From Escherichia coli (GTDB lineage: Bacteria > Pseudomonadota > Gammaproteobacteria > Enterobacterales > Enterobacteriaceae): a stretch of 64,000 bases of DNA. A program made the translations under genes and the position numbers. Under the pieces are notes generated by a model, which was not told where the DNA came from, ran no database searches, and saw only the letters and a list, made by a program, of their open reading frames with translations. The stretch lies in assembly GCF_002854065.1 (NCBI RefSeq), contig NZ_CP024147.1. The stretch is one strand, 5' to 3'. Positions 4,550-41,169 of the stretch are shown piece by piece. The number at the start of each line of letters is the position of its first letter. The stretch's first letter is position 1.

Positions 4550-5871
4550 TGCTTTCTCGCAGCTGCCATCAACGCTTCGATTTCTTCCGGCTTTTTCACC
4601 ACGCTGGCGGTGAGGTTTTCGTTACCGGTTTCGGTAATCACAATGTCGTCTTCAATACGAATGCCGATACCGCGATATTGTTCTGGCACTTCTGCATCCG
4701 GCGCAATATACAGCCCTGGCTCTACGGTCAGTACCATGCCCGGTTCCAGAATGCGCGAGCGATCCTGACCATAAACACCCACGTCATGGACATCCAGTCC
4801 TAACCAGTGGCTAAGGCCATGCATAAAGAAAGGACGATGGGCGTTCTGAGCGATCAGTTCATCAACATCACCTTTCAGGATGCCGAGTTTTACCAGGCCG
4901 CTAACCATGATGCGCACCACTTCACCGGTGACTTCCTGAATGGAAGTTCCCGGACGATACAGGCGCAGGCTGGTTTCGAGAGACTCCAGCACAATGTCGT
5001 AGATTTCACGCTGAGCCTGAGTGAATTTGCCGTTGACCGGGAAGGTGCGGGTAATATCGCCAGCGTAACCTTTGTATTCGCAACCCGCGTCAATCAACAC
5101 CAGATCGCCGTCGTGCAGTTCACACTCGTTTTCGGTGTAATGCAGAATGCAGCCGTTTTCACCGCTGCCGACAATGGTGTTATAGGAAGGATAGCGCGCG
5201 CCGTGGCGGTTAAATTCGTGGTGAATTTCGCCTTCCAGGTGGTACTCGAACATTCCCGGACGGCATTTTTCCATCGCCCGGGTATGCGCCAGGGCGGTGA
5301 TTTCACCCGCGCGGCGAAGTACGGCAATCTCTTCCGGCGATTTGAACAGGCGCATTTCATGAACAATGGGACGCCAGTCGATCATCGTTGCCGGCGCGGT
5401 GAGATTTTGCCGCGAACCTTTACGCAGTTTCTCAAGCGCGCTGTTCACGATTTCATCAGCATATGCATATTCGCCCTGGGCGTGGTAAACCACATCCAGA
5501 CCATTAAGTAGTTGATAAAGTTGCTGATTAATTTCGCTGAATGCCAGTGCGCGGTCAACGCCCAGTTTCTCTGGCGCGGCATCCTGACCTAAACGACGGC
5601 CAAACCAGATCTCCGCCGTCAGGTCGCGAACGCGGTTAAACAGAACGCTGTGGTTATGAGTGTCATCGCTTTTAATCAGCACCAGCACCGCTTCCGGTTC
5701 GTTAAAGCCGGTGAAGTACCAGAAGTCACTGTTCTGACGATAGGGGTATTCGCTGTCGGCGCTACGTGTTACTTCTGGTGCAGCAAAAATCAGCGCGGCG
5801 CTGCCGGGTTGCATTTGCTCCACCAGGGCCTGACGGCGACGCTGAAACTCTTGCCGGGATATCTCACTCAT
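4546..5871 (-). CDS. pepP: Xaa-Pro aminopeptidase (aminopeptidase P II)
   Basis: Track ORF 4546..6084 trimmed to internal Met (MSEISRQEFQRRRQAL...) giving 441 aa; M24 peptidase motifs. Confidence 0.92.
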   Translation of the reverse strand: MSEISRQEFQRRRQALVEQMQPGSAALIFAAPEVTRSADSEYPYRQNSDFWYFTGFNEPEAVLVLIKSDDTHNHSVLFNRVRDLTAEIWFGRRLGQDAAPEKLGVDRALAFSEINQQLYQLLNGLDVVYHAQGEYAYADEIVNSALEKLRKGSRQNLTAPATMIDWRPIVHEMRLFKSPEEIAVLRRAGEITALAHTRAMEKCRPGMFEYHLEGEIHHEFNRHGARYPSYNTIVGSGENGCILHYTENECELHDGDLVLIDAGCEYKGYAGDITRTFPVNGKFTQAQREIYDIVLESLETSLRLYRPGTSIQEVTGEVVRIMVSGLVKLGILKGDVDELIAQNAHRPFFMHGLSHWLGLDVHDVGVYGQDRSRILEPGMVLTVEPGLYIAPDAEVPEQYRGIGIRIEDDIVITETGNENLTASVVKKPEEIEALMAAARKQ

Positions 5872-21029: not shown

Positions 21030-21140
21030 TTGTCATGCCGGATGCGGCGTGAACGCCTTATCCGGCCTACAAAAACCTGCGAATTCAATATATTGCAGGA
21101 TACGTGTAGGCCTGATAAGCGTAGCGCATCAGGCAATTTT
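21030..21140. repeat. REP/BIME palindromic repeats in mscS-fbaA intergenic region
   Basis: gccggatgcggcgtgaacgccttatccggcctac ... gtaggcctgataagcgtagcgcatcaggc; typical REP consensus. Confidence 0.85.
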
Positions 21141-34653: not shown

Positions 34654-35562
34654 ATGAAAGCACCTGTTTCATTAACCTCATTTCGCCCACAAAAATCTCT
34701 TGCTATCGCCATCGGCGTGCTTGCCGTGGTTGTGCTGCCATTTCTCTCGTATTACACCGTTAATGAAGGTGAACGCGGCATTTTGCTGCGCTACGGAAAA
34801 ATCGTAAAAGTTGCCGAGCCGGGTCTGGGTTTTAAGATCCCGTTTATGGAAAGCGTGGAGAAAATTTCCACGCGTAATCAGGCTGTGGTCTATCAGGGAT
34901 TACAGGCCTACAGCCGCGACCAGCAACCGGCACAAATGACAGTATCAGTCAGCTTCCACATTAAACCTTCAGAAGCAGGCGCGGTTTATACCACCTACAA
35001 CACCATTGAAGCATTAAAAGATCGTCTGATTGTCCGTCAGTTGCCAACTCAACTGGAGAACGTTTTCGGCCAATATACCGCCATCAGCGCTGTACAGGAT
35101 CGTACAAAACTGGTTCAGGATCTGCAAAATGCCATGCGCAAAGCCGTTGTTGGGCCAGTGGTAATTGACGGGGTCCAGATTGAAAATATTGATTTTTCTG
35201 ACGCTTATGAAAAGTCGATTGAAGACCGAATGAAAGCAGAAGTCGCCATTGCCACGCGTAAGCAAAATCTGGAAACAGAGAAAATCCAGGCGCAAATAGC
35301 GGTAACTCAGGCCCAGGCAGAAGCAGACAGTAAACTGGCGGCAGCCAAAGCAGAAGCGGAAACTATTCGCGTAAGAGGCGCGGCAGAGGCTGAAACTATT
35401 CGTTTAAAAAGTGCGGCTGAAGCAGAAGCAATCCGCCTGCGCGGTGAAGCTCTGCGGGATAATCCCGGACTTGTAGCCCTCACCACTGCCGAACGTTGGG
35501 ACGGTAAACTGCCCGATACCATGATCCCCGGCAGCACAGTTCCGTTTATCTCTACTAAGTAA
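34654..35562 (+). CDS. SPFH/band-7 (prohibitin/stomatin-like) membrane protein with C-terminal Ala/Glu-rich repeats
   Basis: 302-aa ORF; N-terminal TM helix IAIGVLAVVVLPFL, SPFH-like core, C-terminal repeats AEAETIRVRGAAEAETIRLKSAAEAEAIRLRGEA; preceded by 330-bp AT-rich region. Confidence 0.7.
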   Translation: MKAPVSLTSFRPQKSLAIAIGVLAVVVLPFLSYYTVNEGERGILLRYGKIVKVAEPGLGFKIPFMESVEKISTRNQAVVYQGLQAYSRDQQPAQMTVSVSFHIKPSEAGAVYTTYNTIEALKDRLIVRQLPTQLENVFGQYTAISAVQDRTKLVQDLQNAMRKAVVGPVVIDGVQIENIDFSDAYEKSIEDRMKAEVAIATRKQNLETEKIQAQIAVTQAQAEADSKLAAAKAEAETIRVRGAAEAETIRLKSAAEAEAIRLRGEALRDNPGLVALTTAERWDGKLPDTMIPGSTVPFISTK

Positions 35563-35604
35563 AAAAAGGGCCGCTTTCGCGGCCCTTGAGAGTGATGGCA
35601 AAAG

Positions 35605-35725
<121 letters not shown>

Positions 35726-35781
35726 TTACCAATAATCTAAAGGGCCGCTTTCGCGGCCCTTCTCACAAAACGTCTTACTGA

Positions 35782-38050: not shown

Positions 38051-38809
38051 ATGAAAATTCGCGCCTTATTGGTAGCAATGAGCGTGGCAACGGTACTGAC
38101 TGGTTGCCAGAATATGGACTCCAACGGACTGCTCTCATCAGGAGCGGAAGCTTTTCAGGCTTACAGTTTGAGTGATGCTCAGGTGAAAACCCTGAGCGAT
38201 CAGGCATGTCAGGAGATGGACAGCAAGGCGACGATTGCGCCAGCCAATAGCGAATACGCTAAACGTCTGACAACCATTGCCAACGCGCTAGGCAACAATA
38301 TCAACGGTCAGCCAGTGAATTACAAAGTGTATATGGCGAAGGATGTGAACGCCTTTGCGATGGCTAACGGCTGTATCCGCGTCTATAGCGGGCTGATGGA
38401 TATGATGACGGATAACGAAGTCGAAGCGGTGATCGGTCACGAAATGGGGCACGTGGCGTTAGGCCATGTGAAGAAAGGGATGCAGGTGGCACTTGGTACA
38501 AATGCCGTGCGAGTCGCGGCGGCCTCTGCGGGCGGTATCGTCGGCAGTTTATCGCAATCACAGCTTGGTGATCTGGGCGAGAAATTAGTCAATTCGCAAT
38601 TCTCCCAGCGCCAGGAAGCAGAGGCGGATGATTACTCCTACGATTTACTGCGCCAACGCGGCATCAGTCCGGCAGGTCTTGCCACCAGCTTTGAAAAACT
38701 GGCAAAACTGGAAGAAGGTCGCCAAAGCTCAATGTTTGACGACCATCCAGCATCCGCCGAACGCGCCCAGCATATTCGCGATCGTATGAGCGCGGACGGG
38801 ATTAAGTAA
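38051..38809 (+). CDS. loiP: outer-membrane lipoprotein metalloprotease LoiP (YggG), M48 family
   Basis: Track ORF 37832..38809 trimmed to MKIRALLVAMSVATVLTGCQ (lipobox) ... HEMGHVALGH zinc motif; 252 aa. Confidence 0.92.
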   Translation: MKIRALLVAMSVATVLTGCQNMDSNGLLSSGAEAFQAYSLSDAQVKTLSDQACQEMDSKATIAPANSEYAKRLTTIANALGNNINGQPVNYKVYMAKDVNAFAMANGCIRVYSGLMDMMTDNEVEAVIGHEMGHVALGHVKKGMQVALGTNAVRVAAASAGGIVGSLSQSQLGDLGEKLVNSQFSQRQEAEADDYSYDLLRQRGISPAGLATSFEKLAKLEEGRQSSMFDDHPASAERAQHIRDRMSADGIK

Positions 38810-38820
38810 GGCATGGTGGT

Positions 38821-39120
38821 GCCAAACGTAGTTCAGATAAGGCATTTACGCCGCATCTGACATAAATGGCACATTCACTACCTCGTGCGCATTGCCGGAT
38901 GCGATGCTGGCGCATCTTATCCGGCCTACGGGTGCCAAACGTAGGTCAGATAAGGCGTTCACCCCGCATCTGACATGAATGGCACATTTGTTACCTTGTG
39001 CGCATTGCCGGATGCGATGCTGGCGCATCTTATCCGGCCTACGGGTGCCGAACGTAGGTCGGATAAGGCGTTCACGCTGCATCCGACATTAATGGCACGT
39101 TTTACCCGTGCGCATCGCAT
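38821..39120. repeat. BIME cluster: about 2.6 tandem copies of a ~113-bp REP-containing unit
   Basis: Unit gccaaacgtag..cagataaggc..ccgcatctgacat..gcgcattgccggatgcgatgctggcgcatcttatccggcctacgggt repeated from 38821, 38934 and 39046. Confidence 0.9.
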
Positions 39121-39127
39121 CTGGTGC

Positions 39128-40048
39128 TTACTCGCCCTTTTTCGCCGCCTGAATATACAGCATTTCCAGCGCCAGCGTTGCCGCTGCCAGAGCGGTGATT
39201 TCCGACTGATCGTATGCCGGAGCCACTTCCACTACGTCCATCCCAACGATGTTGAGATCTTTCAGGCCGCGTACCAGTTTAATAGCGCGATCGGAGGTCA
39301 GACCGCCAATTACCGGCGTACCGGTTCCCGGCGCAAATGCAGGATCCAGGCAGTCGATATCAAAGGTCAGGTAAACCGGCATATCACCCACAATTTGTTT
39401 CACCTGGGCGATAACGTCATCCACGCTGCGATCGTTCACCTGGCAGGCGTCCAGCACGGTAAAGCCGTTGTCTTTATCAAATTCGGTACGAATACCAATC
39501 TGCACGGAATGATTCGGATCGATCAGACCTTCTTTCGGCGCGGTATAGAACATGGTGCCGTGGTCAAATTCACAACCGTTCGCGTAGGTATCGGTGTGGG
39601 CGTCAAAGTGTACCAGCGCCATTTTGCCGAAATGCTTCGCATGAGCACGCAGCAGCGGCAGCGTAACAAAGTGGTCACCACCGAAGGAGAGCATACGCTT
39701 ACCGGCAGCCAGCAGCTTCTCGGCGTGTGCCTGCAGTTTTTCGCTCATCTCACGGGCATCGCCGAAGGCATATACCAGATCGCCGCAGTCCACCACGTTC
39801 AGACGCTCGCGCATGTCGAAATTCCACGGGAAGCGGTTGTGTTCCCAGGCCAGGTTAGTCGAAACCTGGCGAATCGCCGCCGGGCCATGACGACCACCGG
39901 CACGGCCAGAGGTGGCCATGTCGAACGGCACGCCGGTGATCACCCAGTCGGCATCGCTGTCATACGGCTGGAAGTTCATCGGCAGGCGTAAAAAACCAAA
40001 GGCGTTGGAAACCAGTGAGTTATCGTATTGATGACCTAAGGTGCTCAT
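39128..40048 (-). CDS. speB: agmatinase (agmatine ureohydrolase)
   Basis: 306-aa [63 protein letters not shown]...; arginase fold. Confidence 0.95.
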
Positions 40049-40183: not shown

Positions 40184-40650
40184 CTATTTCCGACACGGTG
40201 GCGGCGCATAGCCATTGTTATCTGCCGGAAAGGCTTGTCCAGAGCACGGCGGCAGCGCGTTTTGCGCCTGGCCTTGTAATTCAAAGGCGGCAAAGCCGAT
40301 TACACCGGTATTACGCACATCGCCTTGCGCCGAATTGGCTGCGTAGGAATCAGCAACGTTGGCGAACTGAAAAGCCGCTTCGGTATGTTTATCTTTGCGG
40401 AATCCTTTAATCGCTAACGAATCTCCGGCATTCACAATATAGCCGTTGTTATTCAGCGAACCTTGCTTGCCGTTCAGCACATCCAGGCCATCAACCGTAG
40501 CAACGATCTCGTAGTTGGTGTTACGACTGTAATTACGAACATATAATTGATAATTCATTCCGACTCTGGCGTGGACAATATAGCGTGGTTCATTATTGGA
40601 TGAATCATAAACACGCGTAATAGGTAGAGAATTAAAATTACCATCGCGAA
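40184..40650 (-). pseudogene. 3' fragment of unknown gene, 5'-truncated by IS1 copy 2 (Asn/Tyr/Gly-rich, two C-terminal Cys)
   Basis: Minus-strand frame is open from IS1 boundary (40650) to stop at 40184, about 155 codons ending ...NALPPCSGQAFPADNNGYAPPPCRK; track shows only the part from the first Met (40184..40558); not recognisable as speA. Confidence 0.45.
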
Positions 40651-40665
40651 GGTAATGACTCCAAC

Positions 40666-41169
40666 TTATTGATAGTGTTTTATGTTCAGATAATGCCCGA
40701 TGACTTTGTCATGCAGCTCCACCGATTTTGAGAACGACAGCGACTTCCGTCCCAGCCGTGCCAGGTGCTGCCTCAGATTCAGGTTATGCCGCTCAATTCG
40801 CTGCGTATATCGCTTGCTGATTACGTGCAGCTTTCCCTTCAGGCGGGATTCATACAGCGGCCAGCCATCCGTCATCCATATCACCACGTCAAAGGGTGAC
40901 AGCAGGCTCATAAGACGCCCCAGCGTCGCCATAGTGCGTTCACCGAATACGTGCGCAACAACCGTCTTCCGGAGCCTGTCATACGCGTAAAACAGCCAGC
41001 GCTGGCGCGATTTAGCCCCGACGTATCCCCACTGTTCGTCCATTTCCGCGCAGACGATGACGTCACTGCCCGGCTGTATGCGCGAGGTTACCGACTGCGG
41101 CCTGAGTTTTTTAAATGGCGGAAAATCGTGTTGAGGCCAACGCCCATAATGCGGGCGGTTGCCCGGCAT
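40666..41169 (-). CDS. insB: IS1 InsB' frame
   Basis: 167-aa ORF; differs from copy 1 at several residues ([22 protein letters not shown]...). Confidence 0.9.

Follow-up and report, generated by a model that had tools for sequence, protein, structure and literature searches.

A tandem BIME-2-type array of REP elements in the spacer between the convergent genes loiP and speB of Escherichia coli

What occupies the 318-bp spacer (38810-39127) that separates the stop codons of the convergent loiP and speB genes, how did it arrive at its present form, and what could it do for the two genes? The question arises from a stretch of 64,000 nt of Escherichia coli GCF_002854065.1 (contig NZ_CP024147.1; one strand, hereafter the window), in which the initial annotation had described, at 38821-39120, about 2.6 tandem copies of a ~113-bp BIME unit lying between loiP and speB. 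Tandem Repeats Finder places a single array at 38818-39115 (period 113, 2.7 copies, 89% matches, 1% indels, score 470), and a gap-free repeat finder aligns 38818-38930 with 38931-39043 at 92% identity and has a third, partial copy in register from 39044. The extent, unit length and copy number given earlier were thus right to within a few bases, and self-comparison of the region yields a clear tandem period of 113. A direct repeat of 113 nt at this identity is far beyond chance. According to the ORF listing and the RefSeq annotation of matching genomes, the array lies wholly inside the spacer, and the same annotation agrees on the identity of the two flanking genes. Beyond speB, the window carries an ORF for an IS1 transposase at 40666-41169 on the - strand (Pfam PF03400, E = 2.3e-78), at the place where the match between the window and the genome of strain XJ34 ends. 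This end, at 40650, falls inside a 732-nt lipoprotein gene that XJ34 possesses between speB and speA; a remnant of this gene is present in the window as a 124-aa ORF (40184-40558), and K-12 has no gene at all at this place.

Positions 38818-39127 contain two complete units of 113 bp followed by a partial one of 84 bp (Table 1). On the + strand, a unit runs from a short linker of 10-11 nt through a 35-nt palindrome that begins with GTAG and a linker of 30 nt to a 37-nt palindrome that ends in CTAC. Five palindromes of 35-37 nt follow one another across the array in the order y(+), z2(-), y(+), z2(-), y(+), with GTAG at 38828, 38941 and 39054 and CTAC ending at 38929 and 39042. The tail-to-tail linkers share the consensus GGGTGCCRAAC. 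The small substitutions between copies that had been noted before amount to nine differences between units 1 and 2, all of which fall within the y REP and the 30-nt linker, the z2 REPs being identical. Partial unit 3 differs from the terminal unit of K-12 at one position. Its last 39 nt (39089-39127) comprise a shortened linker with a small hairpin and then the 3' half of a z2 REP, which abuts the speB stop codon.

Table 1. Features of the loiP-speB spacer and its flanking genes, with positions in the window.
Feature	Position	Strand	Remarks
loiP (yggG) CDS, metalloprotease LoiP	38051..38809	+	stop 38807-38809; RefSeq annotation of XJ34, K-12
Unit 1 of the 113-bp BIME-2 repeat (S-like linker, y REP, 30-nt linker, z2 iREP)	38818..38930		most divergent unit
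Tail-to-tail linker, 10-nt version	38818..38827		
y-type REP 1	38828..38862	+	GTAG and TTCAGAT/ATCTGAC stem, AA/GC mismatch
Head-to-head linker, unit 1, 30 nt	38863..38892		weak internal hairpin GCAC..GTGC
z2-type REP 1	38893..38929	-	+ strand reads ...CTAC, - strand GTAG...; strongest hairpin, about -21 kcal/mol on either strand
Tail-to-tail short linker GGGTGCCAAAC, 11 nt	38930..38940		S-like, between CTAC and GTAG
Unit 2 of the 113-bp repeat	38931..39043		3 differences of 113 vs the single full K-12 unit
y-type REP 2	38941..38975	+	published y consensus
Head-to-head linker, unit 2, 30 nt	38976..39005		GCACA..TGTGC hairpin
z2-type REP 2	39006..39042	-	same sequence as z2 REP 1
Tail-to-tail linker, second copy	39043..39053		
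Partial unit 3, 84 nt	39044..39127		S-like linker, y REP, shortened linker, 3' half of z2 REP
y-type REP 3	39054..39088	+	GTCGGAT/ATCCGAC stem, compensatory variant of y REPs 1 and 2
speB CDS, agmatinase	39128..40048	-	stop 39128-39130; RefSeq annotation of matching genomes

The palindromes have the properties of E. coli REPs, being imperfect palindromes in the range of 30-40 nt with GTAG at the foot of the stem, an extragenic 3' position and the y or z consensus. Those that start with GTAG match the published y consensus GCCGGATGCGGCGTGAACGCCTTATCCGGCCTAC with the exception of compensated stem changes, and they also match the REP that was crystallised together with TnpA_REP and, in Rfam, the Y half of the naRNA4 consensus. 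Those that end in CTAC match the Z2 half of the latter as well as the long z REP of a second tandem BIME-2 in the window, at 61413-61604 (period 87, 2.2 copies, 90% match), in which short linkers join y REPs and long z2 REPs. The distinction between z1 and z2 was based on the BIME-1 and BIME-2 copies within the window together with the Y-l-Z2 consensus of Rfam. BIME-2 elements are defined as tandem, alternating y and z2 REPs with linkers that vary in length and sequence, and at one locus linker and copy number can differ between strains by local amplification (Ton-Hoang et al., 2012, PMC3333891). Both the alternation of y and z2 and tandem copies in a number that varies among strains are found here, and the K-12 allele has already been listed as "BIMEs2 ... 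146 bp ... yggG>-<speB" (Sutormin et al., 2019, Table DS3, PMC6379681). In the classification of Gilson and Bachellier, a BIME-2 further has a short S linker joining REP and iREP on one side and an s, l or r motif on the other. The linkers here are the 11-nt GGGTGCCRAAC and the 30-nt sequence; should the latter fit none of the s, l and r types, the element would count in that scheme as an "atypical BIME". The feature between loiP and speB is a BIME-2-type cluster of three y and two z2 REPs in 2.7 tandem 113-bp units, and the BIME label of the initial annotation is borne out in that each unit pairs a y REP with an inverted z2-type REP, the two having GTAG and CTAC tails. The explanation that we prefer as a whole, with a probability of roughly 0.88, combines this BIME-2 identity with a site for gyrase, a block at the 3' ends of both transcripts, and a turnover of units in place.

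Compared with its closest known relative, the K-12 "yggG>-<speB" BIME-2, the array shares locus, alternation of y and z2, tandem organisation and linkers, but has one extra upstream unit (five REPs vs three) with a diverged y REP and linker, and the inner stems of its y REPs are slightly weaker. REP325, the six-unit Y-l-Z2 BIME-2 between yjdM and yjdN that underlies naRNA4 (Rfam RF02564), also consists of tandem Y-linker-Z2 units, and both array hairpins align to the RF02564 model; a recent preprint proposes a role for REP325 as terminator and stabiliser in the 3'UTR. It differs, however, in its 77-bp unit plus spacer (vs 113 bp), in its head-to-head linker of 12 nt, which is unrelated in sequence to the 30-nt linker described here, and in its location between tandem rather than convergent genes. 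The REPINs and RAYT-associated doublets of Pseudomonas are inverted REP pairs as well and are thought to be the substrate of a domesticated Y1 transposase (Bertels and Rainey, 2011, PMC3116915), but they belong to other REP sequence families and are dispersed doublets, whereas the loiP-speB element is a local tandem array with a locus-specific linker.

A BIME-1 (y + z1 with an IHF-binding L linker; RIP/RIB) likewise has a y REP inverted to a z-class REP at an extragenic 3' position. It is, however, single-copy and has a short 30-nt z1 REP and a conserved L linker (TGCAATATATTGAATT...), all three of which are absent from the array, whose z REPs are of the long z2 type, whose units are tandem and whose linkers lack the TGCAATATATTGAATT motif. 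A strict scan for the IHF core (WATCAANNNNTTR) gave no match in the array, but it also missed genuine BIME-1 linkers. Elsewhere in the window, BIME-1-type pairs of a y REP, an L linker with TGCAATATATTGAATT and a short z1 REP occur at 21036-21139 and 35611-35711, and a z1/y pair with a short linker at 58150-58232. The BIME-1 at 35611-35711 lies between a prohibitin-family gene and tkt and is flanked by two copies of the G+C-rich hairpin GGGCCGCTTTCGCGGCCCTT (35568-35587 and 35743-35762), which look as if a terminator had been duplicated around an inserted BIME. In the same intergenic region the otherwise near-identical strain XJ34 carries a 705-bp IS200C insertion (L029 1057-1761) that is absent from the corresponding position of the window (~35561-35566). 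The 3' part of the prohibitin-family gene contains a weak 33-bp tandem repeat (35350-35427, 2.4 copies, 77% match) in an Ala/Glu-rich stretch.

On either strand, the RNA hairpins of the array have calculated energies of about -10 to -16 kcal/mol for y and -21 kcal/mol for z2 REPs; y REP 1, with its weakened inner stem, reaches about -12 to -13 kcal/mol. Compared with shuffled sequence, the fold of the whole spacer is much more stable (z = -6.4 and -7.5 for the two strands). Among 16 y-class REPs, taken from the loiP-speB locus of several strains and from the other BIMEs of the window, pairing in the y stem is kept in 97.7% of cells, as opposed to 21-38% after sliding of the partners. Compensatory changes are seen at two positions of the stem (UA/CG in one case and GC/AU/UA in the other), and strain S21EC contributes a G-U intermediate. 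This covariation is supportive of the hairpin, the sequences being related and hence no independent proof. Pattern scans of 38600-39350 detected no sigma-70-like promoter and, on both strands, 0 intrinsic terminators of the hairpin-plus-T-run kind. Because of the lack of such a terminator, the REPs are the only structured 3'-end candidates in the spacer. A REP at most 15 nt downstream of a stop codon has been linked to translational down-regulation (criterion quoted in the RepRanger paper); here, the distance from the stop codon to the nearest REP stem is 22 nt for loiP and 40 nt for speB. The substrate features of TnpA_REP (RAYT) are present: every y REP has GTAG and, in its stem, the AA/GC mismatch, and each of the two z2 iREPs has GGCC|TAC. 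There is no type I site TGCC|TGAT, the z2 REPs of the array reading TGCCGGAT instead. With its recognition features intact, the array is a predicted substrate of TnpA_REP.

The initial annotation had also stated that copy number at such loci varies between strains, and this holds for the loiP-speB spacer across E. coli genomes. A spacer of 47 bp with one REP-like hairpin is found in F344, one of 90 bp (90/92) with a single y REP in UPEC-774U, and one of 142 bp with one unit that lacks the terminal y REP in wlxctx60. Spacers of 203-205 bp hold 1.7 units (K-12, O157:H7, S21EC), those of 316-318 bp hold 2.7 units (the window, AVS0970), and those of 429 bp hold 3.7 units (DETEC-E480, AVS0947, VTB96929v). 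For the census, the 3' end of loiP was joined to that of speB with the array removed, and the spacer was calculated as the span of the hit minus the length of this query. BLAST queries that contain the array are unfit for counting units, since the pieces overlap within the repeat and shorter alleles still give 100% coverage. The census rests on two systematic, not random, samples of 60 from 5425 matching complete genomes, a collection biased towards clinical lineages. In samples 1 and 2, respectively, 1.7 units were present in 37/60 and 37/60 genomes (62%), 3.7 units in 6/60 and 5/60 (about 9%), 0.7 unit in 3/60 and 2/60 (about 4%), and the 2.7 units of the window in only 1/60 and 3/60 (about 3%). 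The 47-bp single-hairpin form accounted for 4/60 and 4/60, and in 9/60 and 9/60 the gene ends were separated by an inserted island. In the full set, the loiP and speB ends lie within about 1 kb of each other in 4599-4627 of the 5425 genomes.

The spacer is thus occupied by a BIME-2 array in ~78% of genomes, by the 47-bp REP-like hairpin in ~7% and by an island in ~15%. This island is either a D-glucosaminate operon (dagR...dagF) or a DUF1266 gene, and no REPs were found at either junction of the strains that bear it. Since about 22% of genomes carry the hairpin or the island and have no array at loiP-speB, the array is dispensable. Where it is present, unit number is fixed by lineage and not hypervariable: 1.7 units are found throughout the sampled O157:H7 genomes and K-12 derivatives, as against 2.7 in every O145:H28 genome listed. 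The earlier proposal of a typing marker therefore stands insofar as copy number tracks lineage and fits a coarse marker.

Evidence on the origin of the array comes from its 30-nt head-to-head linker, which, searched alone at low stringency in the E. coli collection, occurs in 4029/5426 genomes at 5156 places in total; the median genome has one such place, genomes with 3.7 units have three, and the maximum is four. Adding up the frequencies of all alleles that hold one full unit or more gives the same figure as the share of linker-bearing genomes (74%), and the 1127 surplus places agree with the frequencies of the 2.7- and 3.7-unit alleles in the samples. The linker is specific to loiP-speB, and the array would therefore have expanded in place. 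At least one genome has four linker copies, possibly a 4.7-unit array. Units 2 and 3 of the 3.7-unit allele have the same sequence, and one such unit is all that separates this allele from the E480-type 2.7-unit allele (AVS0970), a sign of recent gain or loss. Two routes may add or remove units in place, namely unequal recombination or slippage of replication between direct repeats of 113 bp, or alternatively strand exchange through TnpA_REP, the REP-associated transposase; in either case turnover would be slow enough for unit number to become fixed within lineages.

An exact-pattern scan of species-representative genomes for the junction of y REP and linker found it in three other Escherichia genomes, the other 12 matches, in unrelated taxa, being close to the number expected by chance. 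In E. albertii NBRC 107761 two matches spaced by 113 bp lie in a 323-bp loiP-speB spacer with 2.7 units, in Escherichia sp. E1V33 two with the same spacing lie in a 205-bp loiP-speB spacer with 1.7 units, and in E. whittamii a single match lies in a 246-bp loiP-speB spacer of the order z2-S-y-linker-z2-S-y-tail. Unit 1 of the window differs from unit 1 of E. albertii (L014 11040-11152) at five positions and from any sampled E. coli unit at nine or more; the flanking gene ends of the window and E. albertii are 91-95% identical. This nearness suggests either an old polymorphism or exchange between species, and the architecture with two full units is probably old or has likewise been exchanged.

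As regards function, the strongest evidence concerns gyrase. BIME-2s in general are strong, transcription-independent gyrase sites that are cut mainly in their y REPs, and the "yggG>-<speB" BIME-2 of K-12 was cleaved in vivo at two sites with rifampicin plus ciprofloxacin (Rif+ciprofloxacin) and at two with oxolinic acid, but at none with microcin B17 or with ciprofloxacin alone (Sutormin et al., 2019, PMC6379681). Given these zero counts the evidence is modest, and it pertains to the 1.7-unit allele of K-12 and not to the 2.7-unit allele of the window. The array could be a place where gyrase acts independently of transcription and removes the positive supercoils arising between converging loiP and speB transcription; a location of this kind for a gyrase site makes mechanistic sense. 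In addition, the transcribed hairpins may function as two-way 3'-end blocks that partially terminate the loiP and speB transcripts and protect the mRNAs from 3'-exonucleases. We infer such a role at the RNA level because of the position of the array, the strength of its hairpins on both strands, the lack of a canonical terminator and the work on REP325 and convergent gene pairs. REPs have been described as terminator plus stabiliser, and convergent pairs that contain them are more highly expressed, yet no general difference in mRNA half-life was observed for REP-containing genes (Harris, 2026, preprint). An effect on mRNA stability, which the initial annotation had mentioned, is therefore plausible from the REP literature. 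A literature search for REP together with speB or loiP returned nothing specific to the locus in main texts, and the supplements of Harris (2026) list neither speB nor loiP.

A dose effect of unit number on gyrase might be expected as well. In its boldest form, this idea would make the number of units (0 to 3.7) a heritable dial, with more units giving more gyrase and stronger two-way 3'-end blocks and thereby lineage differences in the expression of agmatinase (putrescine synthesis) and LoiP without any change of promoter or coding sequence; the rare allele of the window would then be an old, maintained variant and not a recent slip. We consider this extension improbable.

Among the alternatives to the preferred explanation, that of a selfish or neutral array deserves most attention. 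The REP doublet would have been mobilised once, amplified locally by the REP-associated transposase and merely tolerated since, without a selected function at this site. Its dispensability speaks for this, the spacer being reduced to a 47-bp hairpin in ~7% of genomes and taken by an island without REPs in ~15%, as does a copy number that ranges from 0 to 3.7 units under no obvious constraint. The features recognised by TnpA_REP are moreover intact (GTAG, the stem mismatch and the C|T step in GGCC|TAC), and diversification and local amplification driven by the transposase have been proposed (Ton-Hoang et al., 2012, PMC3333891). On the other hand, four or more Escherichia species have kept the array at the orthologous site, its hairpins are maintained by compensatory changes, and the K-12 allele is cleaved by gyrase in vivo (Sutormin et al., 2019, PMC6379681). 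We regard an array without function as possible but on balance doubtful; it is also not exclusive of the preferred explanation, as origin and present use are separate questions. Far less probable is that the units are genes for naRNA4-like nucleoid-associated sRNAs that bind HU and condense the chromosome. Each unit does match Rfam RF02564 over the whole 77-position model (E = 2.6e-7 and 1.6e-6), and the Y-l-Z2 units of REP325 yield such RNAs, most REPs being transcribed (Qian, 2015). However, the scores of 46.4, 42.8 and 33.9 bits all remain below the gathering score of 59.5 bits, the match requires a 19-nt insertion in the linker, the similarity is that of generic y and z2 REP sequence, and the spacer contains no promoter-like site. 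REP325/naRNA4 itself, furthermore, caused no measurable compaction of the nucleoid and acts as a local 3'UTR element (Harris, 2026, preprint).

Two more trivial explanations were considered and rejected. An ATG-started ORF of 78 aa (38846-39082, - strand) lies wholly inside the array and might be taken to encode a small repetitive protein, but 113 is not a multiple of 3, so the reading frame changes whenever a unit is added or lost, and the ORF is impossible in the 47-, 90- or 205-bp alleles. No gene is annotated at this site in any matching genome, and the sequence of the ORF is fully explained by the REP palindromes; a coding function is thus barely conceivable. It is just as hard to believe that the extra unit is a sequencing or assembly artefact. 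Tandem repeats longer than short reads are indeed prone to mis-assembly, but the 318-bp allele of the window recurs with the same length at >=99% identity in 79 independent complete genomes out of 5426, including XJ34, XJ6-3 and many of serotypes O145:H28 and O169:H41. Units 1 and 2, with their nine differences, are in addition not confusable, and the closest relative of unit 1 is the first unit of E. albertii.

The loiP-speB array, which in the preferred explanation combines BIME-2 identity, gyrase site and 3'-end block with unit turnover in place, is an already known type of element at an already catalogued locus, and nothing about it departs from published BIME-2 behaviour. BIME-2 arrays, their binding of gyrase and differences in copy number between strains have reportedly been described since the 1990s. 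Beyond the initial annotation, the analysis contributes the assignment to the BIME-2 type, the link to gyrase cleavage measured in K-12 and the figure of about 22% array-free genomes. What it adds to the knowledge of the locus is modest: a census of its alleles across about 5400 complete genomes, a linker unique to it, the occurrence of the array in other Escherichia species, and a lone hairpin or a D-glucosaminate operon as alternative content of the spacer. Together, the alleles at this single pair of convergent genes form a natural series with 0, 1, 3, 5 and 7 REPs, which may serve as a test bed for the effect of REP dose on termination, mRNA stability and gyrase.
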